Below are positions 6,740-31,099 of a DNA stretch of 32,000 nt, one piece after another. The notes below the pieces were generated by a model. It was not told the DNA's origin, did not search any database, and worked only from the letters and a program-made list of their open reading frames with translations. The DNA comes from Haloarcula halobia. Lineage in GTDB: Archaea; Halobacteriota; Halobacteria; Halobacteriales; Haloarculaceae. The translations under genes and the position numbers were made by a program. The stretch is taken from contig NZ_CP119787.1 of the NCBI RefSeq assembly GCF_029338255.1, positions 2,587,631 to 2,619,630 on the forward strand, given 5' to 3'. Within the stretch, counting starts at the first letter, position 1. Each line of letters begins with the position of its first letter.

Positions 6740-7864
6740 TCACCGAGCTTCGCGCAACACCCACGGCTTCGCATCCGGGTCGTATTCGCTGATTTTCCCG
6801 CTGTGACTGCGTGTCTCCGCGGCAAGCACGCCGATGTGCTTGAGTTGCTGGACGAAATTGAACAGCACGTTCGTTCGAATAATGTCCTTCCAGACGGCCT
6901 CCTCCTCGTAGATGCGGGACACTTGCCCTGCCTCGATCAGTTCCCGGGCCCGTGTTCGGCCTGCCCGCGTGCAGAACGTGTTCAGGAAGACGTTCGGGTA
7001 CTCGTGAACCAACCGACGAACCAAGTCCGGGAAGTGGATCCGCGGCCCCTCTTTCCGCAACGCGTCAAGTAACAACCGGAACTCCGGGTGTCGCTCGTAG
7101 CAGTTCCGAAGCAGAATAGCGAGCGGCTGGTGCTCCGCGACGACCGTCGAACGGCCGACCTCATCTTTGACTGCATCGAGCTCCTGGAGTGTCGATATCC
7201 CGTATCCGCGAAGCACTGTCGCTGCAAGTTCCCCCTGGTCAGTTAGCGAGAACCGATCAGTACCCTCCAACAGTCCAAGTGACAGCGCACTCCGCCGGGC
7301 CTGGGTGCCCGCGCCGAAGCCGTACTCAGCTTCGATCACATCCGCTAATTCATCGCCAGCCAGCGGGCCCTGCTGATCGACCGCGACGACCGGCGCGAGA
7401 TAATTCAGCGGTTGGGCAAGCGAAAGACTCGCAATATCACCGGAAATGTCACTCCGGCGCAGTCGAACCGACAATTGCCCCTCAATATCAACGACCTGCT
7501 CGTGGGACTCCGAGGTCGGTGGACTCGACCATCGCGTCACCCCATCGTCCGTCGCACCGATCACGCCGACACCTTTCGACCGGAGCAAATCAGTATGTTG
7601 CCCGACCGTGTCGGCAGCCGCCGCAAGATAGGAGACGTGCGCCCCCTGCTGGTACGTGAGTGCCTGCCCGATCCCGCGGAGTAACCCGTTCGATCCCTTC
7701 ACCTCGACGGCGAACACGCGATCAGCATGCGTAAACCCAAGCACATCCGGATACCGCCCACCAATCGTGATCTGGTGGGTCTCGCAACGGTTCAAAACAT
7801 CCGCGTACGTATCTTGATGCCACCCGGGCACATGGACGAGTGGCTGGTAGTCGCGTGTTTCCAA
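6740..7864 (-). CDS. Protein with an N-terminal PD-(D/E)XK/Hjc-like motif; paralog of the 29822..31099 product
   Basis: A 374-aa ORF with a TTG start in the track, so the true start is uncertain. The motif GGRYPDVLGFTHADRVFAVEVKGS fits the PD...E-x-K pattern. The C-terminal blocks HFPDLVRRLVHEYPNVFLNTF and VLFNFVQQLKHIGVLAAE parallel TLPKLVQSMYDKRPAYTVELF and TVYQFKMMLRHSGILHSD in the 425-aa ORF. The gene lies 21 nt downstream of the nuclease-helicase gene on the same strand. Confidence 0.55.
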   Translation of the reverse strand: METRDYQPLVHVPGWHQDTYADVLNRCETHQITIGGRYPDVLGFTHADRVFAVEVKGSNGLLRGIGQALTYQQGAHVSYLAAAADTVGQHTDLLRSKGVGVIGATDDGVTRWSSPPTSESHEQVVDIEGQLSVRLRRSDISGDIASLSLAQPLNYLAPVVAVDQQGPLAGDELADVIEAEYGFGAGTQARRSALSLGLLEGTDRFSLTDQGELAATVLRGYGISTLQELDAVKDEVGRSTVVAEHQPLAILLRNCYERHPEFRLLLDALRKEGPRIHFPDLVRRLVHEYPNVFLNTFCTRAGRTRARELIEAGQVSRIYEEEAVWKDIIRTNVLFNFVQQLKHIGVLAAETRSHSGKISEYDPDAKPWVLREAR

Positions 7865-7885
7865 GTCTATCCACTCATATTGTCC

Positions 7886-10800
7886 TCACAATATTTCTTC
7901 GAATTCGAATTCTGAGTCATATCCATCTCGAACAAACACATCGGGATCATCTGTCGGGCGTACGAACGTCTCCGCGATGATCTCCTCATACCTCCCAATA
8001 TCAATGACATCACCGAGATCAATGGCCTCTGAATGACCAAACCCACCCATATGCCCGTAGAAGTCGAGCCAAAGTGAGTGGTCGTCAAAGTCATCAGTAC
8101 TCTGGCTACTAGCTTGGAATAGTCCCTTCCCGCCAATAACAATCACTTTCCGCATCATTCGACTTGCTGCGACATTGAATCTGTTCGGGTCGAAAAGGAA
8201 GTCGGCCAGTCGATTGATGTAGCTTGGATCAGTACTTGTGGCCGCGACAATAATCAAATCCCTCTCGCGCCCTTGAAACTTCTCGACAGTATCGACCTTT
8301 ACCTCCTCAGGGACCTCATCAGAGGTGTTGAGTGCTTCTTTCTGCCGATTAAACGGTACAACAACCCCGACAGTAATTTCATTTTCCGGGTCCGTAGTGT
8401 CAGAGTGTTCGTCGACTACATCGTAATGAGAGACGATCTCCTCAATAAGCGACTGTTCGATCGGACTTCGCTTTTCGGCTGTTGAGTCCGTGTGTTCTAA
8501 TAATGATATGCGAGTCTCAGGTTCAAACACCGGCTCTAACGGCTCGGGTACGTCCCCCTGTGGAGTAGGGAATGGCGGGTGGTTGGCGCAACTGGTCAAC
8601 TCAATTCCGTCCTGCTGGTAGACGAGGTCTGTATGCATCTGTGCAGGCTCGTCGGGGAGTCGATATGTGTATGTGAGCTGGTGGAGCGGAATAGTGTCAT
8701 CTTCGTTCTCAAGGTCTGGCGGTTCTCGACGGATGTGTTCAAGGGTGTCTGGATCGATTTCTCCACGTAGGAAACGATGGAAGTTCAATGCCGATAGGAA
8801 GGGTGTGTTCAATTCGATTGGCCGCCGATCTTCTCTCTCCCATTCGTGTTGCTGGATCGGTTCCATCTGCCGATGGTCCCCTACTAATCCAATCTGACCG
8901 TCTTGGCGCAGGAAGGCTCCAACGAGGAGATACAACGGCAGATCCATCATACTGGCCTCGTCAACTAGGATCATATCTGCATACCTGGCATCACCGTTGC
9001 TCATAACCGTCTCCCCATCGCTATCTTCGGCGTACTCTGCCATCTTGTCGATAGCTCGATAGAGGGAGGCGGGTGTGCCAGCCATGATGAGTTGGTCTGT
9101 CTGCTCATCAGCCTCATCATTAATATAGGAGTCATACAGTTCCTCAAGCCGGTCGGCAGCATCGTCGTCACTGTAGTGGATATGTTCGACGGAATCTAGG
9201 TCAACGCCCTGTCCCTCACTAGAGCAAATCCGTACGATATCGAGATCATCAAACTCAGTATCGAGGTCGGCATGGAGTTCAGCTACACTCCGCAACGCTT
9301 CATCAACCGCATCGTGAGATAACGCCGAAATAAGACCAACAAACCGAGAATCCGACGTCTCGACAGTGGTAGCATGATGGACTCGACTAAGTAATGTCGG
9401 TGCAAGAGTGAATTTTGTTTTTCCCGTTCCAGGTGGACCCTGTAGAAGCATCACACCGCTGTTCGTGTCGGTTATAAACCCATGCTGATCTTCATTAGGC
9501 CCCGGCACAGCGCATTCCTCGTCGACATCAGCGTCGTCCTCTGAATCTGGATTATCGTCTAACTCACGAATGAGATCAATAAATGGTTCTAGAGCATCAG
9601 GGTCAGGGCCAGCGACTGAGAGGTCCTCCCGATCACCATTGAACACTTGAGCGAGCCGCTGATAGACGACGTTTTCATCGATGCGACCGGGTTCAAGGGC
9701 CGTCGCAGCACGAGATTGGGGAATCATATCTACACTGGGATCGAGCACATATTCGAGGGGATCGCCACTAAGCGACTCTTCTAAAGAAACGCCCCAATCG
9801 GAGGGATCATGATCGTCTGCAGTCATCCAGTCCTGGTGCTCGACACAATACATTTCGTCTGCAGTGTCACCTTGAGGCCAATCTCCGAGTACCGATCCTT
9901 CAATAGTCCCACTATCCAAATCGACGTCATCGACGATCGTCGTCGGATGGCGCTCGATGTATATTGGGTTATCCTGGTACACTTCTTCTGGTATCTCGCC
10001 AGTGTCGGTCAATTGGGTTAGCACGCACCACTCGTCAACCGAAAGCGGGTTCGGCGCGATACTGTCGTGGTGCTCTGGATCATACGGCTCACGGTTGTAG
10101 CGCAACAAGTCACCATCGATGTATGCATCATCGAAACCCGAGTCGTTTCTGTCGATTCGGGGCCGTGTATTCTCGAAAATAACGGCTTCGCCTGATGCAG
10201 CCCGTTCGATGAGTGGTTGCCGATAGTACGATTCTAACCGATTCTGTTCAGACCAGAACTCTAATTGCTGGTACTCACGAACCGCATCAGCCAACGAACG
10301 GGGCCGGAAGTGAATATCACGGAACGAGCCGGTTCGAAGTGGCTCCTTATCAACGAAAGCATCCTTGTTCCAAGTGCTCCGCTCGATATGGCGAATCGCG
10401 TACGAGAACTGCTGGGCAAGAAGCGTCACATCCTCTTCGGTGATGCGTTCAGAGTGGGTCGCAGAACGATAGAGGTAGTCTCGAACGAGATCAGGATCAT
10501 CGCTCACATCCGGATCTAACTCGTTATGAATTCCCCAGATATATTCTAAGGGTATCTGGTCAGCCTCACGGTTGGAAACTGGATACGCCCAACTCGCCAA
10601 ATTATGACTGTCTGGATCTACATTACGCGAGACCGCATGATCAAGTTCAATCCCGCCAGACGGGTTACCGTGACCTACGAGTCCATCGAAGAGCCCCCTC
10701 TCAAAGAGAGTGGTTAAATCGACTTCCTCACCATCCTCACGTGTTGCGATCCATTGGAACCAGCCACTGTCATCAGTCCACTGATCCGATGTGTTGCGCA

Positions 10801-12475
10801 TATACTGGGCAGTCGTTTGCAACAACCCCAATCCAGCAAAGCGGAAAGCGTACCGTTCCCGGAAGTCTTGCTGCAACACCGACACCATCTCTTGATCGAT
10901 TCCCGGCCGAAGCCCTAACAGCGTCCGGACAGCCTCTGAACCGTGAACATCGGGATGGCGACGCAATGCAGCAAGTAACGACTGGCGCTGGTGGTAACTA
11001 TAAAAATACAGGTGAGGGAACCCTTCTGATTCAGCTAAGCCTTCCGACCGCAAATCGGGTGCGACCTGAGCGATTGCCTCCCCAAGTTGTGCGAAAAATT
11101 CACGGAGAAGTTGTCGCTCCTGATAATCCTTGTCGTCAGGGTCGGTGTGGATGGCATCAATTATCTGGCTTACGTCTCTTCCTTCGTCGGACCTCGAATT
11201 CTCAACATAGGCATTCAGCAGCGTGACACGATCAAGCGCAGGGTCATGTTGAACAAAGAGATAAATCCGAATAAGCGCACCTGACGGATAGTCGGCCCCG
11301 CCCGGATAAGAGCGCCCATGCTCATCTCGCGGTAGGTTATACCCTGACCCTTGCAGGTGGTGCCCCCATAAGTCTGGGTCTGAACCATAGTCAGCGTCCA
11401 ATTCGGTCAGAAAATGATACGCGATCTGCGACCGCATCTGCAAATTAGTGAGGTCTGTTTGTTCCCGGACTGCCTCAACTAGCTCGTGATTTCGCGGAGT
11501 GAGTGCCCCCGCATCCGTGTGCGAGCTATCTGATCCCGGTTGGTCAAATAACAGTGCAAAATCTTCGAGGTCAGTAATCCCGCCATCTATCTCAATCCCT
11601 TCCAAAGCGTCCTGAGTACTGGGATCGAATCCAAGGAGTTCCAATCCTTTTGACTCAGCAGCACGCGTCATACAGACAGACTCATACTCACATCCCGAAC
11701 AACGCCGATCAATTCGATTCCGCGTCATATCGAACTCAGCGTCAAGTATCTGATCGAATTCATTCCCTGGACTAAGCTTCAATCTGAGTTTCCCCAGATA
11801 CCGGGAATAGTCGAAGTCTTCGACGCTACCCATCCCACCCCGGAAATCATTCTGCTGTGTAATGACCGTCGCAAAAATTCGATCGAGAGAGCACTCGACT
11901 CCTACGTCTGTCGCTACTTGGTTTACCAAACTCGCATATGCCGCTGCCTGATACGAATGAGGAACTTTCCGCTCGTCCGAGTTCTTCAACTCGGCGAGAA
12001 GGACTCGAATCGAATCCTGTTCTGCAGTCAGGAACACCAAGTCTGCAGTTCCAGAGACATCGTAGGCCCCGATCTCACCCGAAAGACTAGGTTGGTGGAC
12101 AACCATCACATCATCCTCAGGCCCGCGTGTCCCTGCCTCTCGAAGAAGGTCAGCTACGGCCGACTCGGGAATAGACCGGTCATCACCGATCGTCCGGTCG
12201 TATCCATCCCAATCACTCTCAGCAGGACCAATGAACTCGTACGTCGCCTCGTCTAAGGCGTCTAACTGCCGGTATTCGAAATCGACACCCTCTCCCATCA
12301 AAACAGGACTTTTTTCATCAGTATCCCACTGGCGGCTATGCAGTTCCACCTGCGCGTCGTCATCATACTTCCACGTCAAATACATCTGACAAGACTCTAC
12401 AGAGAAATACCGACCAATCGTACTCGGATTTAGTGTTGGGCGGGTAGTCGACATCTGCTCCTTCCATCGCACCAT
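7886..12475 (-). CDS. Dna2-like nuclease-helicase: N-terminal Cas4/RecB-type Fe-S nuclease plus C-terminal SF1 (Upf1/Dna2-like) helicase
   Basis: A 1529-aa ORF. In the N-terminus, ADLVFLTAE...LLAELKNS...HSYQAAAYA matches the D...E-x-K...Q-x-x-x-Y pattern. A Cys in ESCQMY plus CSGCEYESVC (C-x2-C-x5-C) matches the Cas4/AddB-type 4-Cys cluster pattern. The C-terminus has Walker A LLQGPPGTGKTKF (nt 9416..9439), Walker B ILVDEASMM, and the late helicase motifs TVEKFQGRERDLIIV and NVAASRMMRKVIVIG. About 750 aa between the two domains have no recognisable motifs. Confidence 0.8.
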   Translation of the reverse strand: MVRWKEQMSTTRPTLNPSTIGRYFSVESCQMYLTWKYDDDAQVELHSRQWDTDEKSPVLMGEGVDFEYRQLDALDEATYEFIGPAESDWDGYDRTIGDDRSIPESAVADLLREAGTRGPEDDVMVVHQPSLSGEIGAYDVSGTADLVFLTAEQDSIRVLLAELKNSDERKVPHSYQAAAYASLVNQVATDVGVECSLDRIFATVITQQNDFRGGMGSVEDFDYSRYLGKLRLKLSPGNEFDQILDAEFDMTRNRIDRRCSGCEYESVCMTRAAESKGLELLGFDPSTQDALEGIEIDGGITDLEDFALLFDQPGSDSSHTDAGALTPRNHELVEAVREQTDLTNLQMRSQIAYHFLTELDADYGSDPDLWGHHLQGSGYNLPRDEHGRSYPGGADYPSGALIRIYLFVQHDPALDRVTLLNAYVENSRSDEGRDVSQIIDAIHTDPDDKDYQERQLLREFFAQLGEAIAQVAPDLRSEGLAESEGFPHLYFYSYHQRQSLLAALRRHPDVHGSEAVRTLLGLRPGIDQEMVSVLQQDFRERYAFRFAGLGLLQTTAQYMRNTSDQWTDDSGWFQWIATREDGEEVDLTTLFERGLFDGLVGHGNPSGGIELDHAVSRNVDPDSHNLASWAYPVSNREADQIPLEYIWGIHNELDPDVSDDPDLVRDYLYRSATHSERITEEDVTLLAQQFSYAIRHIERSTWNKDAFVDKEPLRTGSFRDIHFRPRSLADAVREYQQLEFWSEQNRLESYYRQPLIERAASGEAVIFENTRPRIDRNDSGFDDAYIDGDLLRYNREPYDPEHHDSIAPNPLSVDEWCVLTQLTDTGEIPEEVYQDNPIYIERHPTTIVDDVDLDSGTIEGSVLGDWPQGDTADEMYCVEHQDWMTADDHDPSDWGVSLEESLSGDPLEYVLDPSVDMIPQSRAATALEPGRIDENVVYQRLAQVFNGDREDLSVAGPDPDALEPFIDLIRELDDNPDSEDDADVDEECAVPGPNEDQHGFITDTNSGVMLLQGPPGTGKTKFTLAPTLLSRVHHATTVETSDSRFVGLISALSHDAVDEALRSVAELHADLDTEFDDLDIVRICSSEGQGVDLDSVEHIHYSDDDAADRLEELYDSYINDEADEQTDQLIMAGTPASLYRAIDKMAEYAEDSDGETVMSNGDARYADMILVDEASMMDLPLYLLVGAFLRQDGQIGLVGDHRQMEPIQQHEWEREDRRPIELNTPFLSALNFHRFLRGEIDPDTLEHIRREPPDLENEDDTIPLHQLTYTYRLPDEPAQMHTDLVYQQDGIELTSCANHPPFPTPQGDVPEPLEPVFEPETRISLLEHTDSTAEKRSPIEQSLIEEIVSHYDVVDEHSDTTDPENEITVGVVVPFNRQKEALNTSDEVPEEVKVDTVEKFQGRERDLIIVAATSTDPSYINRLADFLFDPNRFNVAASRMMRKVIVIGGKGLFQASSQSTDDFDDHSLWLDFYGHMGGFGHSEAIDLGDVIDIGRYEEIIAETFVRPTDDPDVFVRDGYDSEFEFEEIL

Positions 12476-12637
12476 TGAAATAAATAACCCCGGCTATTTT
12501 CGCTTTCTAGACTCCGGAACATTACGGATTACTAACTCCTCGTACTGTGTCTACTACTTGTGCTTATATCAAAATTCCCGAATGTACAGACATCCGGGAA
12601 GCAGCGTTACTCGATGTGATACGAGCCCTACCTTCCC

Positions 12638-13351
12638 TCACAGCTCAGCGTAATTCGGACGTTCCTTGTATTGAATAGGATCCTCGACGCCAGCTTCCTG
12701 GAAGGCTTTGAGGCGATAGGCACAGGCGTCACAGGTGCCACAGGCCGGGGCTTCTTCCCGGTAACAGCTCCACGTCAGTTCGTACGGGACATCCAGTTCG
12801 AGGCCGCGTTCCGCAATCGCTGTCTTCGTCCAGTCCACGAACGGCGCTACTAACTCGATCGATGTCTCCGGTTTCGTCCCCACGTCGATAACCTGCTGAA
12901 ACGCGTCAAAGAACTCGGGACGGCAGTCGGGATACCCGGAATAGTCCTCGCTGTGCGTTCCGATAAACACTGCACTGCAGTCATTGGCTTCGGCGTACGA
13001 AGTCGCCATTGACAGCAGGTTCGAGTTCCTGAACGGGACGTAACTCGACGGAATCTCATCGCTGCCGAGATCAACTTCCTCGACATCGATACTGTCGTCG
13101 GTCAGGCTGGAGGCACCGATCCTGGCCAAGTGGTCGGTCTCGATATGGAGAAAGTCAGCCACCTCCATATACTCGGCCAACTGTTGAGCACATGCAGACT
13201 CCTTGTCCGCTGTCTGCTGGCCGTAGGTCGTGTGGAGAAAATACAGGTTGTATCCTCGTCGCTGTGCCTCGAAGGCTGCCGTTGCACTATCCATTCCGCC
13301 CGATACCAAGACAACCGCACCGTCCCGCTCCTTCGTTTGTTCAGTCGTCAT
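12638..13351 (-). CDS. queC: 7-cyano-7-deazaguanine (preQ0) synthase QueC
   Basis: A 237-aa ORF with the PP-loop VVLVSGGMDSATAA, a conserved FVPFRN-like segment (YVPFRNSNLL), and a C-terminal Zn-binding Cys cluster (WSCY...CGTCDACAYR). Confidence 0.9.
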   Translation of the reverse strand: MTTEQTKERDGAVVLVSGGMDSATAAFEAQRRGYNLYFLHTTYGQQTADKESACAQQLAEYMEVADFLHIETDHLARIGASSLTDDSIDVEEVDLGSDEIPSSYVPFRNSNLLSMATSYAEANDCSAVFIGTHSEDYSGYPDCRPEFFDAFQQVIDVGTKPETSIELVAPFVDWTKTAIAERGLELDVPYELTWSCYREEAPACGTCDACAYRLKAFQEAGVEDPIQYKERPNYAEL

Positions 13352-13360
13352 AGCTGTGTT

Positions 13361-14143
13361 CTATGTTTCTGGTGCGTCGTTCCAGAGGTCGACGTGGAGC
13401 CGTGGTGTATACTGGTAGCCGTGCTCCATAGCCACCTCCGCAGCCACTTCACGCGTTTCCGCCAATCGATCCCGGGTCGCTCCCTCCGGCATCAACAATA
13501 CGTCCGAATCCCGGATCGGAACACTGGCTGACTCCCGGAGGCGATCAACCAGCCGGTTGATCTCCGGCATATCGTCCCGGCCAGTCACCACGAACTTCAG
13601 CTGGAAGTCGTAGTTCTCCACCAACCGGCAGAGAGCGTCTATGTCTATCCGTCGATCCTTGTGCCGGTCCGCCCATTCGCCGTCGCCCTGTGGATCCTTC
13701 TCTTGGGTCGGCGTGCTGCTCGCCAGTTTTGGACTGATGCTCGCCAGGTCAATAGCGGTGTCTCGGTAGATGGTGCCGTTTGTTTCGACCGTTATATGAT
13801 AGCCGGCGGCACTGAGGCGTTCTATCAGGGTGACTATCTCATCGTGAATCATTGGCTCCCCGCCAGTCACCACGACATGGCCTGCTTCCCCGTGGTCGTT
13901 GACACGATCAACGATAGTGCCGACATCGAGCCAGGAGTGGGTTGGCTGCCAGCTGGTATGGTACGAATCACAGAACCAACACCGTAGATTGCACCCGCTG
14001 GTCCGAACGAAAACGGTCGGCATCCCCGCAAGCTTCCCCTCGCCCTGCAGCGAATAGAACAACTCATTAACCGGCAACCCCTCTTGGGCTTCCGTAGTGG
14101 TTACATCGTCATCGATCGTTTCGGCATCCGAGCTTACCGGCAT
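13361..14143 (-). CDS. queE: 7-carboxy-7-deazaguanine synthase QueE (radical SAM)
   Basis: Contains FYSLQGEGKLAGMPTVFVRTSGCNLRCWFCDS, the QueE-type N-terminal motif plus the radical-SAM Cys triad C-x3-C-x2-C. I place the start at the internal ATG (MPVSSDAE) at 14143, which leaves 4 nt after the queD stop. The track ORF extends to 14176. Confidence 0.88.
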   Translation of the reverse strand: MPVSSDAETIDDDVTTTEAQEGLPVNELFYSLQGEGKLAGMPTVFVRTSGCNLRCWFCDSYHTSWQPTHSWLDVGTIVDRVNDHGEAGHVVVTGGEPMIHDEIVTLIERLSAAGYHITVETNGTIYRDTAIDLASISPKLASSTPTQEKDPQGDGEWADRHKDRRIDIDALCRLVENYDFQLKFVVTGRDDMPEINRLVDRLRESASVPIRDSDVLLMPEGATRDRLAETREVAAEVAMEHGYQYTPRLHVDLWNDAPET

Positions 14144-14147
14144 CGCT

Positions 14148-14615
14148 CTACACCGGCCCTCCAGCAGCAAGTTCACCAGTCTCCCGAACCTCGACTACGA
14201 TATCACTGACCGTGTCCGGCAACGTTTCTTTAAGCCGTCGTTCAAGAGTGATTCCCATCACTTCGGCTGTCGGTGGCTGATTGAGGACGATCAGAGCATC
14301 GCCGTCGCCACTGGCCTCAAAAGCCTCGATCAGTGGATCACCCTTCTCCACGAGAAATCGGTGATCCCACTCAGATAATACAGAAGTGATGTCTCCCTTG
14401 TCGATGACCCACCCTTCGCTGGTCAGAGTGCCAGTTATCGAGACGCTGACTTTGTAGTTATGCCCATGAGGACGGCTGCACTTGCCGTCATGGTGTAGAA
14501 TCCGGTGTCCTGTACTCAGGCGAATCGGCCGCTCACGTCCGACGTGTAAGGTTCGCTCAGTCTCGGAGAGATCCTTCGATGTGAAGAAGTACTCCTCAGA
14601 TAGGTCTTGGGCCAT
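14148..14615 (-). CDS. queD: 6-carboxy-5,6,7,8-tetrahydropterin synthase QueD
   Basis: A 155-aa ORF of PTPS/QueD-typical size. It carries the QueD/PTPS motif CSRPHGHNYKV, which holds the catalytic Cys and the Zn-binding His residues. Confidence 0.85.
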   Translation of the reverse strand: MAQDLSEEYFFTSKDLSETERTLHVGRERPIRLSTGHRILHHDGKCSRPHGHNYKVSVSITGTLTSEGWVIDKGDITSVLSEWDHRFLVEKGDPLIEAFEASGDGDALIVLNQPPTAEVMGITLERRLKETLPDTVSDIVVEVRETGELAAGGPV

Positions 14616-14758
14616 ACTGCAATATTATCTGAGGCATACTTAACTTTGAACCACTTGCCGAAAGTTATGGTAACTTCGGAAATGTGTCTGTGATGTGACG
14701 GTTTTGAGAACGAGAAGTTAATTGAGGGCAACGATAGAGTTACTACACAGGTCATTTG
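14616..14758. promoter_or_regulatory. AT-rich divergent intergenic region between queDEC and the TGT operon; presumed bidirectional promoter
   Basis: A 143-nt gap between divergently oriented start codons. It is visibly AT-richer than the flanking genes and has TATA-like stretches (cttaacttt, aagttatgg, aagttaattg). No transcription start evidence is available. Confidence 0.3.
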
Positions 14759-24200: not shown

Positions 24201-25059
24201 CGTTCAGGATTTCCGGCCAGTCTTGGAGTGGGAGCGTATTTGCAATGAGAAGATATGGTGGATCCTCAACGTCTTCGAACCCCACCACGGACTTCCGAAT
24301 CATTTTGCGCACAATCGCCCGGAGTTTCAGTTCTTCATCAGTCACCGGCCCGATATCGAATGCCTGCTCAAACTCATCCAGGCAGATAACCGGATATCGG
24401 CCTGTCTCCTCTTTATAAAGCCGAGTGAACCACGTAAGTGTCTCGTGGATATCTCCTGTAGTCAGCTCCTTCACAATCATTGCGACATCAGCAACCGTTG
24501 AAGGATCGTCAAACACCTCCTCCAGGCGATCCTGCTGTGAGGACGGCAACGCCTGAAGATCGCTCACCGTGAGATTCGCCTTCTTCTGTTGGAACTCATC
24601 AACTAGGTCACCTTCGGACAGCCCATCAGCAGGGGACACCAGTCCCTCAAAAACCCGTCCGAGCATCCGATTCGGGCTGTCACAGTCCTCAAGGCTAACC
24701 TCAACTGGATCAATAGGAGTCTCTCCATAGGTGAATTGATCATATTCCACCTGTTCACCATCCTTCGTAAATTCCTTCGATTGGCTGCACAGGTCAACCA
24801 GATTGTTCATCAGCACCGTCTTGCCGGAACCGTATGCTCCGTGCAGGACAACCCCCGGACTCTGTTTATCGGAAAGGCCAGAGTGGATCCCCCGGATGAT
24901 AGCATCCCGCTTGTCGGTGAGGATAAAACCAGAGTCTGACTCGATAAAGTCCCGGAAATTAGGATGTTCGTCCGTAGCAAGGGTTTCGCAATCTCGCTCG
25001 AATCCCTTGATGGTCTGTGCCTCAAGGAGCGTGACGATGTGCGTTTGTGCTTGATCCAT
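21217..25059 (-). CDS. Large P-loop NTPase, BrxC/PglY-like (DUF499-like) candidate
   Basis: A 1280-aa ORF with an N-terminal Walker A VVLHGAYGSGKTVLMNNL (about nt 24818..24846) and Walker B PVICLDEFEQ. A very long acidic C-terminal region has no other motifs. The size, N-terminal P-loop and linkage to a PglZ gene resemble BrxC/PglY. This is not verified by a profile search. Confidence 0.5.
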   Translation of the reverse strand: MDQAQTHIVTLLEAQTIKGFERDCETLATDEHPNFRDFIESDSGFILTDKRDAIIRGIHSGLSDKQSPGVVLHGAYGSGKTVLMNNLVDLCSQSKEFTKDGEQVEYDQFTYGETPIDPVEVSLEDCDSPNRMLGRVFEGLVSPADGLSEGDLVDEFQQKKANLTVSDLQALPSSQQDRLEEVFDDPSTVADVAMIVKELTTGDIHETLTWFTRLYKEETGRYPVICLDEFEQAFDIGPVTDEELKLRAIVRKMIRKSVVGFEDVEDPPYLLIANTLPLQDWPEILNARSDLTDRVRESIAYNIDLSREESKELFADLYRRYALPLLQDYDKDDWETRLNADDDETYVYPFTEDFLNFALSITEGYREEGGDRVVRGFRDFKLIANEYFKRWDQDGIIDLDMLYRYGDEVRDELGELDRGNLDDLPGRDSIEERIEGDFDDCTYTQQRLLFAVAEDGILYRSQNPALYSSEQLGNLADQYTIDISDEELTHLIDTASTRTDYFDIDDDGSLIFDSGELTAEAAPDSEVNLSEEINDVITDEDLRSTSPIQLYREWYDARTVFDIPFDADSSSYIEFDVDGQLSYTDKVYLCFKETPEELQIDSSDDPPTALEFIVCLTEADEDDDVAALYEVSERYERAEDLAEDLENDLNPDIRHDQTERDQTEEVLSTLRSEYPSSSEFDRYLLWTKLCLIRGLEEENPGEERLPDGQLRMLTQTNYLFSPVNLNDGLSGIYRSDYVLNRLGYDGTYNGKEAMNLAYAVQHLKYEDSLEFTDPDIPEAIMPNYPYLSFDPMFGDDLRDTLEDFEENESFVNDGDITDNYTANFQSNIDDLKEMLEDDEVTEDEVYDLIFGTTEIDSVTRALIFLLFVIGDYTEEWILDDTETIIGVESDQEARWETIQDNLRKTVEKQVLKSARGEDIDTDELASLREAYTDVDDIPAAGRLDDLEERCDTDLSVEHGNLDQRLRTLGSSPAFSGTKVPNYIAELRPLGQLETEVLFLITPAVEQLVEQLEAAEDVYELMNDVEELESTYTSLKGTDPDLNLDDIDVSVVSTVNDHYDRTTVEDLIEDLSIGDVLSEFSDDGRDLDPTVSELERHRRQIIPDVEDYEADDDVADLESDKEFLIGEIGDEIEELEEQVEEEREYLENQEDRLPEGSSWSGQGDRVLDSCEDALDESATDFDYDQFKNPWDRWRNQIKQHIEEEAYDEDEISEVLDRYGASESPDTILETEEVDVDDSLMALSDSDFEQVINALNGEDDDIQSLRRTLIKQRVRSELGEEE

Positions 25060-25066
25060 AGTATCT

Positions 25067-25381
25067 TTATGTAGAAGGGCGGACTCGGAAGCGCATTAGT
25101 CCGGATTTGATGTATGATTCCTCGGGGACAACATAAACACGGCGACCAGCGACGTGCTCTTTAAGTGGACGTGTCATCAGGACGATTTTATCTCCCTCCC
25201 CATCATCTTCATCATCTGGACCGACGAACGCGATATCGAAGTCGCCGGAGAGACGGAACTGGAGCTCGTAGACGAATTCGAATACAGATCCCTGGGCAGC
25301 TTTGGCGTCCCCTGCTGTTACGATAACGAGTCTATTCCAGGGTTTGTTCAACTCGTCCATTACGGGTGCTACAAGCGCCAT
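25067..25381 (-). CDS. Hypothetical small protein (104 aa)
   Basis: The ORF sits 7 nt upstream of the BrxC-like start and 6 nt downstream of the preceding stop. It has acidic composition and no recognisable motif. Confidence 0.5.
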   Translation of the reverse strand: MALVAPVMDELNKPWNRLVIVTAGDAKAAQGSVFEFVYELQFRLSGDFDIAFVGPDDEDDGEGDKIVLMTRPLKEHVAGRRVYVVPEESYIKSGLMRFRVRPST

Positions 25382-25387
25382 GAGAGG

Positions 25388-26197
25388 TCAGTCGACTACC
25401 TCCATAATTTTCCTGCCGTGGTACCTACGGGTTGAAATATGTCCACCGTCCTCTAATTCACCTAACACTTCATCGATGCGTGATGAATCCCAGTCAAAAT
25501 CCATTTTCAGGATATGTTCAAGATCCGAATACGGCATATGGCGGTCATTCTCTTCGAGAATCTGTAACACGATCTCTTCGTCATTCTGTCGGAAGTAGAG
25601 GTACTGCGTGGGGTCGATTTTCCATCGCCGGCCCTCCTTTTTCAGTATTCCCAGGTCATTGAGAATGCCGCCGATCGTCCCTGCGGTGTTCGAATTCCCC
25701 TTTGCATCGAATTTCATCATGTCATTGATCGCATTTCCTCGGTTGGTGCCGAGATCGTAATTCCGCTCTGCAATTCGTTTGTCGACACCTTTGATGGCTC
25801 TCCAGAAATATACGAAGTTGTCCCGGGATTTCTCGACTAGGAGTCGGAAGGCAGCGACATCCTGAGGTGAGGCCTCAACGAGGTCACGCCCTTCCTCGGT
25901 GAGATAGATCCCGTCCTCACGTTGTTCGATGACTTCTACGGAGCCGGCGTATCCGGGCAGCGTGAAGGTGAACCACTCGTCCAGCGGATGACTGAATAGA
26001 TTGTTGTCGCGTTCTTCGTTGATGGTCTCCATCTGTTCACGGAGCTCTTCTTCAGTGATACCGGGATTTCTGGAGACTAAGCGGACAAACCGCTGTAGAC
26101 CTTCGATAACCCGTTGGTTCCCTAACTGGGGGAGAGCGAGATCCAGGTCCTCTTTCTTTGCCGCTGCTCCGACAGCCTCGTCAGTACTGTCACTCAT
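25388..26197 (-). CDS. Hypothetical protein (269 aa), possible winged-helix regions
   Basis: Its start overlaps the PglZ stop (ATGA at 26194..26197). The C-terminal MPYSDLEHILKMDFDWDSSRIDEVLGELEDGGHISTRRYHGRKI looks wHTH-like. There is no family assignment. Confidence 0.5.
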   Translation of the reverse strand: MSDSTDEAVGAAAKKEDLDLALPQLGNQRVIEGLQRFVRLVSRNPGITEEELREQMETINEERDNNLFSHPLDEWFTFTLPGYAGSVEVIEQREDGIYLTEEGRDLVEASPQDVAAFRLLVEKSRDNFVYFWRAIKGVDKRIAERNYDLGTNRGNAINDMMKFDAKGNSNTAGTIGGILNDLGILKKEGRRWKIDPTQYLYFRQNDEEIVLQILEENDRHMPYSDLEHILKMDFDWDSSRIDEVLGELEDGGHISTRRYHGRKIMEVVD

Positions 26198-28992
26198 GAT
26201 TGTAGTTCAAATTCTAAGCGGACACCACATAATTCTCCAAGTGACGTCCCGCCGTGGTGGCCGTGGTCGGTTGCCCGTGGTCCCTTAACCGCATACCGTG
26301 ACAGCGTCCCGATCGTTGGCGAATCAAATATTGCCTCGCCCGAAGGTAGATCAACGTCAATACCGGGCTGCTGTTCCAGTCGTGTCATCGTGTCGTTTTC
26401 GACACTACTCGTCCATCCGTACATGTACTTTGACCCAGAGTTTAGATAGGGCTTAACCCGGACTGCCTCCGCGATTGTCTCATCTGAGAGTGTTTCGTCA
26501 TCCGAGATATAGCGACGTGCCTCATCAAATGGAATTGATCGGCCCGAGCCTGCGAGGCCAAGGGGGACACGGGTCGTATTGGATCTGGTTTTCCCCTCTA
26601 ACCGTTCGCAATTCAACTCGAATACCTCGTCCACATCCAAGGCTTCCGTCAGCATGGACGTATTGAACCGGTAGTCGGATCGGACAGAATCGATGATTTG
26701 CTCCCGCTCATACGTGGTGATTTTCCCGTGGTCCGATGCAACAACGAGAGATATGGATTCAGACTCAAATTCAGGTTCTGCATCTTCGTACGCATTCTCG
26801 ATAGCTGATTCAATATCTTCGTAGATCTGATCAATAAATCCCCCCAGCGCCTGGTAGTAGTTAGAGAACTCAGAGAAATCGAGCGCCGTGTGCAGGAAGG
26901 AATCGAAATCGCTGACGTATAATACGAAATCCGACTTCATCGCCTCTCGGGCTTCTGGCGGCCGGGACGGATCAGTGTACACCTCAATGCGTTGCCGAAG
27001 CGCGTTCTCTAGTTCACCAGTCAACTCTTCTCTCACATCACGGAGAGATGCCTGCGACCCGGTCAGATCTCGTGCCGTTGTCTGGCGAATATCCGCTATC
27101 TGCTCGGCAACTCGTGTAATGCCCCGTTCGGAAAGATGGGTGGACTGGATGAGCTCGAAACTGTGGGGGGTTGTCCGGTCGATGAAATCGAATGCATCGG
27201 AGCCATAGTCCTGATGGAGGTCATAGACATTGTCGCCCCGACGCGGCGCCCATCCATAGATTCCCGTCTCGGAGGCAGGAAGTCCAGAGAGAAGTGTTGC
27301 CATCGCAGAGGGTGTATACGAGGGAAGATTCGAATAGAGCACATCGACATCCGCAGGGTCTCTCCCCAAGGCATCCAACTGCTGAATCACCTCGAAGTCT
27401 ATCAGGCCGAAGCTATCAATAACCAGGAAGATGCGGACGTCGCTCTCCGACCCCGGTTCTAACAGATCTGCGATGTGGGGATGCTCGTTCGAGCTGACAA
27501 TTTCTGGATAGGATGAGACAACAAGGTCGGTAAACGCATCGTATTTCCGCACCAGCGTTGTCAGCAAATCCGACTCAGACGGAGCAGTCGGTGTCGATTC
27601 CAAGACGAACTCAGACCACCGACGAAGGAACTCAGGAAGATTCTCCAACGAGACTTCCATCGCCTGGATCTCTGCCGCTTCTTCCTCCAACTCAAGGTGA
27701 TCGAGCAGCCGGCCCCTCGCCTCATTCATCACGGTCAAGTGAGGATAGGCAACGACCTCCTCCGCTTCTAATTCCATTGCCGCCCGCCAATACGGTACAG
27801 CAATATCTATCCACTCCTCACCAGAGAGTTCCTGGTTAACGGCTTCCCCACCAGAGATCATAACAAGCTCTGTAACGTGCTGGAGGAAACGCCCAAATCG
27901 ATCAAGGGCGTCCCGGGTCGGTCGCTCCCCCAGTTCGCCGCTCGCAAGTTGCTCGGCCTCGTCACCAAAGGTATCCTGAGCTGCGGCGAAACGCCGTGAT
28001 ATCTCGTCGTCGTCAGCCCCAGCAAACACGAGCCCAAAGTGGGACGCTAAAAGCTCTCCTGCATCAGAGGGATCAGCGTACCGTAACTCGATGTCATCGC
28101 CGCCGATCTCGTTGACCGCTGCCTGCAGCGTATCGATAAAGTCCCGGTCAACTGTTGTCGGGGCAAGATCCTCGATATTCCGTGAGGATTCCCGAGAAAT
28201 CACGGTTTCCAAAGCTAACCGCCGAAACGTCACAATCACCTCCTCCCCCAGCTGCCGAAGATGCAGTAAGACATCGCGCTTCCCCGTGCCTGTCGGGATA
28301 TCTTCGCCATAATGATCGACACACTGCACGGTGAAGACGTTCCGCTGCTGATTATCTTCCAGCCGATCAAACACCGTCTTCTCCTGGAGGTTCAGAACAC
28401 GCAGAAAGAACTCGGCTAATGGTTCAGGAGCGTCCGAGAGTTCATCGTACTGGATGTAAACATCCTCATAAACGTCTTCCTGCGTTCGCTGCAGTGCTCC
28501 AGTGTCGACCGTTTTCCCGACAGCACCGGCTACCACAAGCCGGGTCAGATACTCAGCCAACGACAAATCGTGTCTATCAAGCGAGGCATCGACTGTAGCC
28601 CCGTAGGCCTCTCGCTGAGCAACGTTCGAATCCTCAATCCCCAACCGCGCGAACTCCAAAAACGATGAGCCGACGACATCGTCTCGTCGATCGATGAAGG
28701 CGGGCGGACAAATAACAACTGCAGAGTTAGCGCCCGGCTCGCGGGCTATGAAATCGATCGCACTGTGTACTGTTTCTTCGAATTCTTGGAAGGTACGGGG
28801 ATAATGAAGACATCGCACGGAATCATCCGCGAGTTCTGTTAAAAACGTCCGGCCCAGCGGAACGGGGTGTGTAGATGGAACGTAGTACAGGATTCCGACC
28901 GTTTCAGTGATCTTTGAGCTGGTTTCGGTGAGGTTGGTAATACCGTCGAATTGGAGAGAGGGTTCAGCAGAATCCTCTAAATCCGTGATCAT
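26194..28992 (-). CDS. pglZ: PglZ-domain (alkaline-phosphatase superfamily) protein
   Basis: A 932-aa ORF. The C-terminal 400 aa (about nt 26230..27440) carry VRIFLVIDSFGLID (metal-binding Asp), LPSYTPSAMATLLSGLPASETGIYGW (nucleophile Thr/Ser region), LVVASDHGK and ATDHGHHGGTSLGE. This is the order expected for PglZ/alkaline-phosphatase-fold proteins. Confidence 0.65.
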   Translation of the reverse strand: MITDLEDSAEPSLQFDGITNLTETSSKITETVGILYYVPSTHPVPLGRTFLTELADDSVRCLHYPRTFQEFEETVHSAIDFIAREPGANSAVVICPPAFIDRRDDVVGSSFLEFARLGIEDSNVAQREAYGATVDASLDRHDLSLAEYLTRLVVAGAVGKTVDTGALQRTQEDVYEDVYIQYDELSDAPEPLAEFFLRVLNLQEKTVFDRLEDNQQRNVFTVQCVDHYGEDIPTGTGKRDVLLHLRQLGEEVIVTFRRLALETVISRESSRNIEDLAPTTVDRDFIDTLQAAVNEIGGDDIELRYADPSDAGELLASHFGLVFAGADDDEISRRFAAAQDTFGDEAEQLASGELGERPTRDALDRFGRFLQHVTELVMISGGEAVNQELSGEEWIDIAVPYWRAAMELEAEEVVAYPHLTVMNEARGRLLDHLELEEEAAEIQAMEVSLENLPEFLRRWSEFVLESTPTAPSESDLLTTLVRKYDAFTDLVVSSYPEIVSSNEHPHIADLLEPGSESDVRIFLVIDSFGLIDFEVIQQLDALGRDPADVDVLYSNLPSYTPSAMATLLSGLPASETGIYGWAPRRGDNVYDLHQDYGSDAFDFIDRTTPHSFELIQSTHLSERGITRVAEQIADIRQTTARDLTGSQASLRDVREELTGELENALRQRIEVYTDPSRPPEAREAMKSDFVLYVSDFDSFLHTALDFSEFSNYYQALGGFIDQIYEDIESAIENAYEDAEPEFESESISLVVASDHGKITTYEREQIIDSVRSDYRFNTSMLTEALDVDEVFELNCERLEGKTRSNTTRVPLGLAGSGRSIPFDEARRYISDDETLSDETIAEAVRVKPYLNSGSKYMYGWTSSVENDTMTRLEQQPGIDVDLPSGEAIFDSPTIGTLSRYAVKGPRATDHGHHGGTSLGELCGVRLEFELQS

Positions 28993-29057
28993 TGTCTAAT
29001 CCACTGACTGCCCGGCACTAAGTGTTTGCCCACCGCCTCTGTCAGGGATTAGACAAT
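28991..29057. repeat. Perfect 12-bp inverted repeat ATTGTCTAATCC / GGATTAGACAAT spanning the pglZ start codon and 5' region
   Basis: 28991..29002 is attgtctaatcc and 29046..29057 is ggattagacaat, its exact reverse complement, with a 43-nt spacer. The left arm overlaps the pglZ ATG (28990..28992, minus strand). Confidence 0.4.
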
Positions 29058-29067
29058 CTGTTTCAGG

Positions 29068-29811: not shown

Positions 29812-29821
29812 CTTATGTCTA

Positions 29822-31099
29822 TTATGTAGTATTGCGAAGTGTCCAATAATCGGTGGCGGGTGTTAATCGATCTGTTGAACTCGCAGTCACATCCGAATGC
29901 AGAATGCCACTGTGACGAAGCATCATTTTAAATTGATATACTGTTGTACTCTGGTAGACATCGGCCGTTTTCAGCGCTTCAGGAGATAGAGAATCATCTT
30001 CTGAGAACACTTTTTCCCGAGCACCGCTACCTTGCCGGATGAATAGTTCAACCGTGTATGCGGGGCGCTTGTCGTACATAGACTGTACGAGTTTAGGCAG
30101 TGTTGGACCAGCTGTTGATTCTTCGATATTGGTACTGTCTGGCGTTTCCTTTTCGATGGTATCCACAAGGAATGGAGTTGCAGGATATTGGAACAATAGA
30201 TTTCTCGTAAACTCACCCCACCCTCTATGCTCTTCGATCAAATCTTCCTGTTTTCCTCGGCCACCCCAGTCATCCATTTCTTCAAGGGTATCCCCGACTG
30301 TGCCATGTGTTCTTAATGCAAATCGAATTACTTCTTTGCCCAAAGATGTGACTACTAATTCTCTACTGTGGTCACTTCTAACAAGTCCTAAAAATTTAGC
30401 ACCAGACTTGCCAGATTTGAACCCATGAACGATATTTGACTCAAACAACTCCTCGCTCCCTCTATCGCTTGCAATCACTAATGGAATCCCGAGATATGTC
30501 TTTGGATGATTGTAGTGGAATGATTGATCAGCGATTCGTTGTGCACCGGCTTGCCATCGGACAGCAGACGCGGTGTCATCTGTCGCTACCCCTTTTGGAA
30601 CGGGTGGTTCCCGAACAGCGACATCATTATCTGTTACTGCTAATAGACCAATATCTAATTCCCGGGCCAATTGACGGGTACGTCCAGTAATTGCAGTTGA
30701 GGGAACTGTCGCAATAGAAGCATTACTCTCAGATAGCCGGTCGTACGCCTGCAGAATTGCTTTTTTTACTGGCACTTGCGTACCAGTCCGCTGCTTGGTC
30801 TCTCCCTTCGCTTCTACAGCAATTACCGGAAGTGAATCTTGGGGAATGTCTAGGTGCTCTATGAACGCGGGCGGTGGCCCAGCAAATACCATATCGGGGT
30901 AGCCGGATCCAAGTGAGACATGGTTAAACGGTGAAAGAACATCCCGGATTTCAGGTTCGATTGACCCAACATTCTGCCATTCGTCTTTTCGAAACTGTGT
31001 GTCTACAGTTGCATAGCGAATTGTATCAGCTGTGGATGGAATCGCATCAGAAAGCATGAACTCTTTCGTACGGGCCAGCACTTTCGGTTCAGATAACAT
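29822..31099 (-). CDS. Protein with an N-terminal PD-(D/E)XK/Hjc-like motif; paralog of the 6740..7864 product
   Basis: A 425-aa ORF. GSGYPDMVFAGPP...LPVIAVEAKGETKQ fits the PD...E-x-K pattern. The C-terminal blocks are similar to those of the 374-aa ORF (see that feature). Confidence 0.55.
   Translation of the reverse strand: MLSEPKVLARTKEFMLSDAIPSTADTIRYATVDTQFRKDEWQNVGSIEPEIRDVLSPFNHVSLGSGYPDMVFAGPPPAFIEHLDIPQDSLPVIAVEAKGETKQRTGTQVPVKKAILQAYDRLSESNASIATVPSTAITGRTRQLARELDIGLLAVTDNDVAVREPPVPKGVATDDTASAVRWQAGAQRIADQSFHYNHPKTYLGIPLVIASDRGSEELFESNIVHGFKSGKSGAKFLGLVRSDHSRELVVTSLGKEVIRFALRTHGTVGDTLEEMDDWGGRGKQEDLIEEHRGWGEFTRNLLFQYPATPFLVDTIEKETPDSTNIEESTAGPTLPKLVQSMYDKRPAYTVELFIRQGSGAREKVFSEDDSLSPEALKTADVYQSTTVYQFKMMLRHSGILHSDVTASSTDRLTPATDYWTLRNTT

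Follow-up and report, generated by a model that had tools for sequence, protein, structure and literature searches.

BREX (bacteriophage exclusion) systems are thought to act through an epigenetic mark, and to our knowledge all experimentally studied members rely on methylation or, in type 4, on phosphorothioation, the methyltransferase of that type reportedly being replaced by phosphorothioate chemistry. The bacterial Dpd system comprises dpdA-K (Thiaville 2016, Yuan 2018 and Gedara 2023). Its transglycosylase DpdA requires an ATPase partner, DpdB, and DpdC converts the deoxynucleoside of 7-cyano-7-deazaguanine (preQ0), dPreQ0, to dADG, or 2'-deoxy-7-amido-7-deazaguanosine (PMC10164549, as summarized in PMC12839542). 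The closest described system is 'BREX-Related Capture' (BRC), put forward in a purely computational study (PMC12839542; Nucleic Acids Research, January 2026, preprint October 2025). BRC consists of PglZ, the BrxC-like DUF6079 protein, an active STAND NTPase (~170 amino acids (aa), GKT motif), DUF4007 and HerA. It is found in 45 taxa, Halobacteria among them, and a subset of the systems has GNAT/TGT, which might provide the self-mark in another way; the study reports neither DpdB nor DpdC homologues, and queCDE goes unmentioned in it (PMC12839542). Here we describe a 32,000-nucleotide window of Haloarcula halobia DNA, to which all positions below refer, in which genes for 7-deazaguanine synthesis and for tRNA-guanine transglycosylase (TGT) paralogs lie beside a five-gene operon encoding a PglZ-like protein and a HerA-type ATPase (6740-31099). 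We searched its 23 open reading frames (ORFs) against Pfam, NCBIfam and PADLOC profiles, and found every ORF named in a first-pass annotation of the window at its position in the ORF listing and in the profile searches.

The explanation that we favour, and consider probable, is that a defence island of restriction-modification-like type, mobile by horizontal transfer, occupies this part of the Haloarcula chromosome, and that in it a deazaguanine-marking half and a PglZ-like/HerA restriction half are combined. The evidence consists of domain identities, catalytic motifs, the lack of a methyltransferase, a mobile or accessory distribution, and a linkage of the two halves that is seen from either side. 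Judged from its genes, the locus is a Dpd-type modification crossed with a BREX-related capture, and canonical as neither BREX nor Dpd.

With BRC, the locus shares a PglZ-type phosphodiesterase, a large ORC/Cdc6-type ATPase, two small proteins, a TGT instead of a methyltransferase, an archaeal distribution that includes but exceeds Halobacteria, a self-mark proposed to be 7-deazaguanine, and a HerA/FtsK ATPase accompanying PglZ, which as a HerA/DUF87 protein ends the operon here and is found in all related operons. However, it is devoid of DUF6079, DUF4007 and GNAT, its PglZ match is sub-threshold and its small subunit has no P-loop, while beyond BRC this type of locus carries QueCDE/FolE2/YhhQ, a DpdC-like DUF6884 protein and, in haloarchaea, GHKL and ArcS-type genes. 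The haloarchaeal BRC STAND and GNAT sequences that could be machine-read from the supplement of PMC12839542 gave no significant tblastn match in the window or in 38 compared loci, and the haloarchaeal species read from that supplement do not overlap with the species of the present loci. The combination, which the first-pass annotation had taken to be undescribed, can thus no longer be fully called so: the pairing of a deazaguanine mark with a BREX-related machine has recently been predicted on paper, by computation only, in the BRC proposal, besides which a full-text literature search returned no paper that joins PglZ, HerA and a transglycosylase.

Common to the locus and Dpd are a preQ0 pathway, a TGT paralog, an ATPase partner, a YaaA-fold enzyme and a helicase/nuclease restriction arm, represented here by QueC, QueD and QueE and by a helicase with a DpdJ-like C-terminus (3e-12). 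The TGT of the locus, in contrast, is of the archaeal TgtA type, a GHKL ATPase takes the place of the ParB-like DpdB, a distant DUF6884 protein that of DpdC (DUF328), an ArcS-type enzyme is added, and the restriction arm is BREX-related. Like BREX types 1-6 (Goldfarb 2015), the locus has a PglZ-like/BrxC-like core whose operon spans several genes and also encodes small accessory proteins; unlike them, it contains HerA and no PglX, BrxL, BrxH, BrxA (DUF1819) or BrxB (DUF1788). Viral 7-deazaguanine modification systems (DpdA1-4, ArcS2, Gat-QueC; PMC6884629, PMC10516641) likewise combine QueCDE, a transglycosylase and a PUA-less ArcS-type domain, whereas the present locus is cellular, chromosomal or plasmid-borne, and linked to restriction-type genes. 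A possible 'host DpdA' in Haloarcula vallismortis, unexplored at the time, was given one sentence by Hutinet et al. 2019, who suggested that the DNA of virus HVTV-1 might be modified by a host DpdA (PMC6884629). Finally, the Dnd/Ssp systems (DndFGH, PbeABCD, SspE) resemble the locus in serving one modification cassette with alternative restriction modules, and HerA- and PbeA-type components are common to both (a DndH-HerA parallel is drawn in PMC12839542); there the modification is sulfur in the backbone, here it would be base exchange.

The putative marking half is made up of two divergent gene sets. The minus strand encodes the preQ0 synthase QueC (12638..13351; Pfam QueC 5e-73, 245 bits; TIGR00364 183.6 bits against a cutoff of 150.3), the radical-SAM 7-carboxy-7-deazaguanine synthase QueE (13361..14176; Pfam Radical_SAM, with QueE models as the best NCBIfam matches, to 2e-27, yet under the equivalog cutoffs) and the 6-carboxytetrahydropterin synthase QueD (14148..14615; Pfam PTPS 1.5e-18; TIGR03367 QueD 1.8e-19). 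The plus strand encodes a 634-aa fusion of TGT with the ArcS-type C1 domain DUF5591 (TGT-DUF5591, 14756..16660; Pfam TGT 7.5e-31, DUF5591 1.6e-19), a 159-aa DUF6884 protein (16720..17199; Pfam 1.6e-14), a stand-alone TGT of 415 aa (17204..18451, with an alternative GTG start at 17168; Pfam TGT 1e-30) and a MutL/MORC-type GHKL ATPase of 511 aa (18444..19979; Pfam HATPase_c_3 9e-16). The profile searches thereby confirm queD-queE-queC, the two TGT paralogs, the ArcS-type domain and the GHKL ATPase that the first-pass annotation had listed.

The stand-alone TGT is a candidate DNA guanine transglycosylase and functional analogue of DpdA. Its DSGG(F/Y)K and DxFD motifs and a CxCxxC...H zinc site show no variation among 23 homologues. 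It reaches 124 bits with the TgtA model (cutoff 350), 26.8 bits with the NCBIfam DpdA equivalog (cutoff 200) and 3.5e-6 with the PADLOC DpdA model. The 'Dpd hybrid' of the first-pass annotation does not hold in the sense of an orthologous Dpd system, given this DpdA score and a GHKL ATPase instead of DpdB, which is absent. The TGT-DUF5591 protein scores 127 bits with the NCBIfam ArcS model (cutoff 440), and Pfam detects a PUA domain in neither paralog.

The family of the stand-alone TGT counts 291 homologues, scattered across Halobacteria and Nanohaloarchaea. Halorubrum and Halorussus hold copies that are 95-97% identical, one of them on Halorubrum xinjiangense plasmid p1, and a copy at least 90% identical to the large, 1280-aa ATPase of the five-gene operon was found in Haloprofundus salilacus; such near-identical copies across genera and on a plasmid show horizontal transfer. 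In L006-L009 (compared loci are designated by L numbers), the TGTs are 95-97% identical to that of the window and the effector modules beside them vary from locus to locus, indicating recent horizontal transfer together with a shuffling of modules.

These properties bear on a reading in which the genes form an alternative or duplicated tRNA archaeosine pathway that acts on RNA and is unconnected to DNA marking. All Halobacteria are known to make tRNA archaeosine, the best family matches are to TgtA and ArcS rather than to DpdA, and the ArcS catalytic motif is intact. We nonetheless regard such a pathway as highly improbable, given scores far below the equivalog cutoffs, the missing PUA RNA-binding domain, the sporadic, plasmid-borne and horizontally transferred distribution, the coupling of the cassette to a MutL/MORC-type GHKL ATPase and to DUF6884, a protein of DNA-binding fold, the consistent presence of DNA helicases and nucleases as neighbours, and nanohaloarchaeal copies accompanied by a precursor transporter. 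By score, domain content and distribution, the TGT paralogs of the island are distinct from the housekeeping tRNA enzymes.

The TGT-DUF5591 protein keeps the ArcS signature PC-X3-KPY-X2-S-X2-H at residues 494-507 (PCSQEKPYSESRTH) as well as FIDSGGFK and DTFDS motifs, but matches neither a C2 nor a PUA domain in Pfam, and it ends 30 residues past DUF5591. Of the full ArcS organization, C1 motif, C2 and a PUA domain for tRNA binding, it therefore has the motif alone (PMC10516641 defines the motif and describes how PUA serves to bind RNA). By ending soon after DUF5591, without PUA, it resembles the PUA-less viral ArcS2 of DNA context; PUA-less phage ArcS2 is associated with 2'-deoxyarchaeosine (dG+) in DNA, and that of phage nt-1 yields dG+ (PMC10516641). 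The protein is hence a candidate ArcS2-like converter of preQ0 already inserted in DNA.

The DUF6884 protein matches the PADLOC models PDC-M57A (4e-11) and DpdC (1.3e-4) and contains CSATK (CxxxK) and ISAEHG (LSAxxG-like) motifs, of the kinds described for DUF6884, a distant YaaA relative in the 'cantaloupe' fold family (PMC11701544). DpdC itself has been placed in the YaaA family (DUF328, PF03883; PMC12839542), and DUF6884 homologues in L005 and L045 show weak PF03883 matches. We consider the DUF6884 protein a candidate DpdC analogue or DNA base-flipping partner. The GHKL ATPase, whose gene overlaps that of the stand-alone TGT by 8 nt, belongs to a family whose profile finds MutL (1.6e-5) and also MORC2 in the PDB, making it a candidate ATP-dependent TGT partner analogous to DpdB.

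The second half of the island is a tightly packed five-gene operon on the minus strand, with 4-nt overlaps at 21217/21220 and 26194/26197 and other gaps of 6-7 nt, in line with the translational coupling noted in the first-pass annotation. It runs from a 932-aa PglZ-like protein (26194..28992) through a 269-aa protein (25388..26197), a 104-aa protein (25067..25381) and an ORC/Cdc6-type, STAND-like AAA+ ATPase of 1280 aa (21217..25059) to a HerA/FtsK-type ATPase of 410 aa (19988..21220).

The 932-aa protein carries an alkaline-phosphatase-superfamily domain at ~520-932, recognized by Pfam Phosphodiest (4.8e-8; 33 bits against a cutoff of 23), and this superfamily is also that of PglZ. Pfam PglZ (PF08665) itself reaches 13.1 bits against a cutoff of 25 and is sub-threshold in 5 of 7 family members, and no PglZ model of PADLOC or NCBIfam matched the window protein. 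Invariant within the family are D526, T560-P561, D754-H755-G756 and H913-G914-G915-x-S917-x-x-E920, which correspond to metal-ligand and nucleophile motifs. When the broadened family profile was compared with the PDB, the best match was the PglZ-domain response regulator PorX (E 3e-5), with sulfatases and NPP enzymes behind it at E >=0.1, and hhalign against the BREX PglZ of E. fergusonii (pEFER) gave a probability of 58% (E 1e-4). Distant members of the family are recognized by Pfam PglZ in L049 and by NCBIfam BREX_PglZ_3 in L043 (3e-7). Word-indexed homologue searches with the protein and its family profile returned five close relatives only, and tblastn against plasmids returned nothing. 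At the family level, PorX and BREX_PglZ_3 thus point to an affinity with PglZ, and with Pfam PglZ below threshold we write 'PglZ-like' for what is a candidate effector phosphodiesterase/nuclease.

A similar qualification applies to the 1280-aa ATPase, which the first-pass annotation had called BrxC-like. Its Walker A (G74-x2-G77-x-G79-K80) and Walker B (D228-E229) motifs are conserved, and its family is tiny, with 24 relatives among 1.84 billion representatives. DUF499, DUF6079 and BrxC models matched neither the protein nor 19 relatives, which instead match generic models (AAA_22, AAA_16, NACHT-type and others). Its AlphaFold2 (AF2) model, with a predicted local distance difference test (pLDDT) score of 83, was closest in Foldseek to archaeal Cdc6 (3e-5), followed by the N-terminal half of BrxC in PDB 9ZLL, a 2026 BrxC-BrxB-PglZ complex (E 3e-4, ~580 aligned columns, template-modelling score 0.36-0.42), and then by ORC subunits. 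An hhalign comparison of the family with BrxC gave a probability of 22% (E 1e-3) across the Walker B region. Fold and position in the operon therefore speak for the label, whereas no family model does. A DPPY sequence at residue 266 was considered as motif IV of an N6-adenine methyltransferase and rejected, as it lies inside the AAA+ domain; without a motif I/SAM-binding motif or a methyltransferase model match it is probably coincidental. The proline following it is nearly invariant across the family.

The HerA-type ATPase (Pfam DUF87 2.9e-12, HerA_C) is the most conserved component of the operon, with 52-76% identity to its operon homologues. In addition to HerA models it matches PADLOC mad8 (3e-24), and the MADS system, which is methylation-based, was considered on that account and set aside. 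The 104-aa protein is conserved in seven other operons and holds the position of BrxB in BREX and of STAND in BRC. It matches no Pfam, NCBIfam or PHROG family, its family contains no P-loop/Walker A, and no similarity was found to BrxB (hhalign against pEFER) or to PDB sequences. The 269-aa protein, with homologues in six other operons, has a weak Pfam DUF7343 match at residues 205-259 and weak GntR/MarR hints in the PDB, none of them significant; we propose it as a candidate DNA-binding subunit with a probable C-terminal winged helix. A PHROG search of the uncharacterized window proteins added nothing. Taken as a claim of membership in BREX, the first-pass reading fails: PglZ and BrxC models stay under threshold, no BrxA/BrxB homology was detected, and PglX and BrxL are both absent.

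The absence of a methyltransferase gene, in contrast, is borne out. Profile searches found no methyltransferase family among the 23 window ORFs, and a crude motif scan found no ORF with both motif I and motif IV of N6-methyltransferases. Beyond the window, which we followed on the 911-kb contig JBHSYN010000007.1 of GCA_042662805.1 (Haloarcula / Halomicroarcula sp. XH51), precomputed Pfam matches contain no methyltransferase in ~10 kb on each side, and neither PglX nor BrxP, the PAPS reductase of type 4, was found in the window or 10 kb to either side.

To compare gene neighbourhoods, we collected loci with two anchors. Anchoring on the 1280-aa ATPase, relatives of which share 21-37% identity, yielded eight operon loci at seven distinct places (L040, L041, L042, L043, L045, L047, L048 and L049). 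The five-gene operon is the same in all eight, with a PglZ-like protein of 850-930 aa, proteins of ~250, ~100-120 and ~1275-1300 aa, and a HerA of ~410-430 aa, and deazaguanine genes lie beside it at every place with a readable flank. Their composition varies: QueCDE, TGT-DUF5591, DUF6884, TGT and GHKL accompany the operon in L040; DUF6884-TGT-GHKL-TGT-DUF5591 follows directly after HerA, co-directionally, in L045; QueD and QueC stand at a contig end in L042; GATase, YhhQ and a small TGT occur in L043; TGT-DUF6884 lies upstream and YhhQ downstream in L048; and L049 is a single co-directional array, TGT-DUF6884-PglZ-240aa-105aa-1296aa-HerA-QueD-QueC-QueE-FolE2. In L041 the operon is accompanied by GHKL and TGT-DUF5591 only. 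This minimal variant (7286-10729), without a stand-alone TGT or DUF6884, suggests that TGT-DUF5591, whose copy in the window keeps DSGGFK and DTFDS, may have transglycosylase activity of its own. Fast divergence is seen in the ATPase and in the PglZ-like protein (21-37% identity), as would be expected of specificity or sensor subunits.

Anchoring on the TGT, through ORF calling, blastp and clustering, gave 34 loci in a scan of one genome per species and 3 more via protein look-ups. DUF6884-TGT-GHKL is a fixed cassette in ~34 loci, mostly haloarchaeal. A DUF6884 member stands beside the TGT in 34 of the 37 compared loci, a GHKL member is held by 35 of 37 sources (36 loci and the window), in nearly all directly downstream of the TGT, and most loci have a TGT-DUF5591 gene next to it. 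In ~12 loci QueCDE is no more than 10 kb away, and five loci, both nanohaloarchaeal ones included, contain a YhhQ-type queuosine-precursor transporter (Vut_1 2e-49; TIGR00697 above cutoff). The PglZ-like/HerA operon accompanies the cassette in L008/L009, L012 and L032, the hosts being Halorussus halobius, Halorubrum xinjiangense (plasmid p1), a nanohaloarchaeon and Halorussus amylolyticus. The last of these (L032) shows the whole architecture of the window, including its nuclease-helicase, at 45% identity for the TGT and 26-30% for the ATPase and PglZ-like proteins. The TGT/que genes and the PglZ-like/HerA operon are thus linked from both anchors, and this two-way linkage, maintained through rearrangement and with differing deazaguanine modules, is the main evidence that mark and PglZ-like machine cooperate.

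Such linkage has to be weighed against the view that two independent systems are neighbours here: a Dpd-like system with the nuclease-helicase as its own restriction arm, and a mark-free HerA/PglZ-like capture system, brought together by the clustering of defence genes. The window and its ~10 kb flanks are indeed dense with such genes (GmrSD, MazG, SLFN-like helicase, PDDEXK_4, HNH), the TGT cassette pairs with many modules, the two operons are convergent in the window, and only a subset of BRC systems has TGT/GNAT (PMC12839542). However, deazaguanine genes occur at every ATPase-anchored locus with a readable flank, across 21-37% identity, the modules that recur are different ones (small TGT with YhhQ and GATase in L043, FolE2-QueDEC in L049), and L045, L048 and L049 are single co-directional arrays. 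Divergence and rearrangement on this scale are too great for chance co-location, and we consider independent neighbours unlikely. The coupling of mark and PglZ-like machinery is, by this comparative sequence evidence, well supported, and the suggestion of the first-pass annotation that a 7-deazaguanine module supplies the self mark for a BREX-like machinery survives in that respect, with two-way linkage and no methyltransferase nearby in its favour; its 'BREX' was an overstatement.

The PglZ-like operon is one of several partners that replace one another beside the haloarchaeal TGT cassette. Twelve loci combine the cassette with a DpdJ-like helicase (PADLOC 8e-52) and a PLD nuclease, a pair comparable to DpdJ/DpdK, and others with DruE/BrxHI/DpdJ-like DEAD+MZB helicases or with PbeA-like, GIY-YIG and GmrSD proteins; GmrSD-family genes adjoin the cassette in five other loci, e.g. 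L004, and a canonical PglZ recognized by Pfam and PADLOC stands beside it in Natronosalvus. The DpdJ and PLD pair and the DruE/BrxHI-like, PbeA-like, canonical PglZ and GmrSD proteins are homologues of the restriction modules of modification-dependent systems, which supports the pairing of a marking half with a restriction half.

The polarity of the system could also be the reverse, or the island selfish: the mark would shield the mobile island or plasmid and the DNA of the cell from other restriction, as it does in viruses, or the PglZ-like/HerA or PD-(D/E)XK proteins would attack deazaguanine-containing viral DNA in a type IV-like manner, with a different role for the TGT. Haloarchaeal tailed viruses do use preQ0/preQ1/G+ DNA modification widely (PMC8651126, PMC6884629), one copy of the island is plasmid-borne, and the modification-dependent GmrSD occurs with the cassette in the five loci and just upstream of the window. 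A cell that marks its own DNA with a base cannot, on the other hand, also restrict that base; the constant presence of precursor synthesis or uptake argues for base insertion in resident DNA; and the DpdJ, PbeA and BREX-like partners are restriction arms against unmodified DNA. We accordingly judge reversed polarity or a selfish island to be distinctly unlikely.

Nuclease genes on both sides of the two halves may add to the restriction functions. A 1529-aa nuclease-helicase (7886..12475, minus strand) contains Pfam PDDEXK_1 at residues 134-268 and superfamily 1 helicase matches (AAA_11/AAA_12/AAA_19/AAA_30) at 1001-1449; its C-terminus is DpdJ/MkoA-like (PADLOC MkoA 2.7e-31, DpdJ 3e-12), and in L031 and L032 the TGT core is flanked by homologues that share 33% identity with it. 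It is a candidate restriction component. The outermost genes of the island encode two paralogs of a family that we call c9, of 374 aa (6740..7864) and 425 aa (29822..31099), both on the minus strand. No Pfam, PADLOC, NCBIfam or PHROG model matched this family, nor did its profile significantly match the PDB. An alignment of eight members reveals an invariant P68-D69...E96-x-K98-G99, which is a PD..ExK motif, and we therefore predict that c9 proteins are PD-(D/E)XK nucleases. The family adjoins the TGT core in nine other loci, and homologues of the 29822-31099 protein, 38-60% identical, stand directly beside the TGT cassette in L016, L023, L026, L027, L029 and L038.

Combining these results, we chart a model for the island in which QueD, QueE and QueC would raise the supply of preQ0, and the stand-alone TGT would swap guanine for preQ0 in double-stranded DNA, aided by its coupled GHKL ATPase as bacterial DpdA is by the ParB-like ATPase DpdB. 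DUF6884 and/or the PUA-less TGT-DUF5591 would turn dPreQ0 into the final mark, which may be dADG, dG+ or a related adduct. The PglZ-like protein, the winged-helix protein, the 104-aa adaptor, the BrxC-like ATPase and the HerA translocase would form a BREX-related complex that senses DNA without the mark and blocks or degrades it, and the nuclease-helicase and the two PD-(D/E)XK proteins would be additional or alternative effectors against unmarked DNA. The parts of this model that we infer are that DNA is the substrate, which base is finally formed, what the ATPase does, and that the PglZ-like complex reads out unmodified DNA.

Several observations weigh against a marking half that works together with a restriction half. 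We know of no experimental report of 7-deazaguanine in haloarchaeal chromosomal DNA. For the stand-alone TGT, tRNA-type TgtA is a closer match than any DpdA model, and tblastn of this TGT against 50,697 phage genomes gave no match. Membership in the PglZ and BrxC families is sub-threshold, the 269-aa and 104-aa families, when aligned by hhalign with pEFER BrxA and BrxB, gave a probability of 0.2%, and the AF2 model of the PglZ-like protein, built on a 5-sequence alignment, was unusable (pLDDT 34), leaving its N-terminal 500 residues uncharacterized. Within the window, the modification genes and the five-gene operon are convergent and hence not co-transcribed. The PglZ-like module is present in 5-6 of ~33 TGT-anchored loci, so that the TGT cassette works with other partners too, and the linkage could derive from co-mobility in defence islands, with no shared mechanism.

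A broader proposal can be made from the same neighbourhoods, namely that a DNA hypermodification system widespread in haloarchaea and their nanohaloarchaeal symbionts (TgtA-type TGT, GHKL and DUF6884, with or without an ArcS-type enzyme) writes archaeosine-like or other 7-deazaguanine bases into chromosomes and is read by unrelated, swappable restriction machines, a methyltransferase-free PglZ/BrxC-like/HerA machine among them. We hold this proposal tentatively, at somewhat short of an even chance. If true, a BREX-type system would for the first time be seen to use base exchange as its self-mark, and 7-deazaguanine DNA modification would for the first time be placed in archaeal cells, extending Dpd-type modification to them from bacteria and viruses. 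It would also imply that the PglZ/BrxC sensing-effector core does not depend on how the mark is made chemically, giving a new handle on the question of self and non-self in BREX, and would bring new enzymology, with GHKL substituting for DpdB and with ArcS-type and DUF6884 finishing enzymes leading to dG+ or a new adduct in the chromosome. It would be relevant to virus-host biology in hypersaline systems, where many tailed viruses share this base chemistry, and the many restriction arms that accompany the one cassette can be taken directly as candidates for new restriction modules of archaea.

Several gene sets recur around the cassette in other genomes. Downstream of the c9 gene in the six loci in which it stands directly beside the cassette (L016, L023, L026, L027, L029 and L038) lies a conserved array of about six genes (clusters c30, c17, c18, c20, c21 and c31; ~16-21 kb), found in several Halorubrum and Halovenus genomes and absent from the window. 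A four-gene partner module (~310, 278, 975 and 233 aa) is complete in L005, L026 (1387-6761), L029, L030 and L038, and two of its genes recur in L022 and L033. Its 975-aa protein has weak STAND/AAA matches and its 233-aa protein a weak ZorA-like match; in L039, from a Symbiobacteriaceae bacterium, a relative of the former has QueC and two TGT-DUF5591 genes as neighbours. The module is a candidate new restriction arm. The c10 family (~157 aa), absent from the window and without a Pfam or NCBIfam match, lies beside QueC or the TGT cassette in nine loci, e.g. L003 4914-5387 and L006 4895-5395, and may be a further pathway enzyme. In Natronosalvus hydrolyticus (L003 12908-20546), one side of the cassette holds the canonical PglZ with two function-unassigned proteins, and the other a set of four genes resembling HerA-NurA-SMC/Rad50-Mre11. 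Such a set is not usual in Halobacteria, and it may serve in defence, as a variant, instead of in repair.

The surroundings of the window are of the same kind. The window itself has a G+C content of 0.47-0.59 and contains no tRNA genes that could mark an integration site. Its flanks (~10 kb upstream, ~7 kb downstream) encode GmrSD, a type IV, modification-dependent nuclease whose gene lies just upstream of the window. They also encode MazG, DUF8574, a helicase of the SLFN-g3 type and a Metallophos protein, and contain a weak match to HNH. With GmrSD, MazG, the SLFN-type helicase and HNH, this is the content of a typical defence island, and the region as a whole, over 50 kb long, has the appearance of one. 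Within the window and upstream of the genes described above, a separate co-directional set on the plus strand (278-6521) comprises a PDDEXK_4 nuclease (278-1558) and four function-unassigned proteins. The set also includes a 572-aa coiled-coil SMC/Rad50-like protein (7.5e-23, below cutoff, with the model 'archaea-specific SMC-related protein') and may be another defence system.

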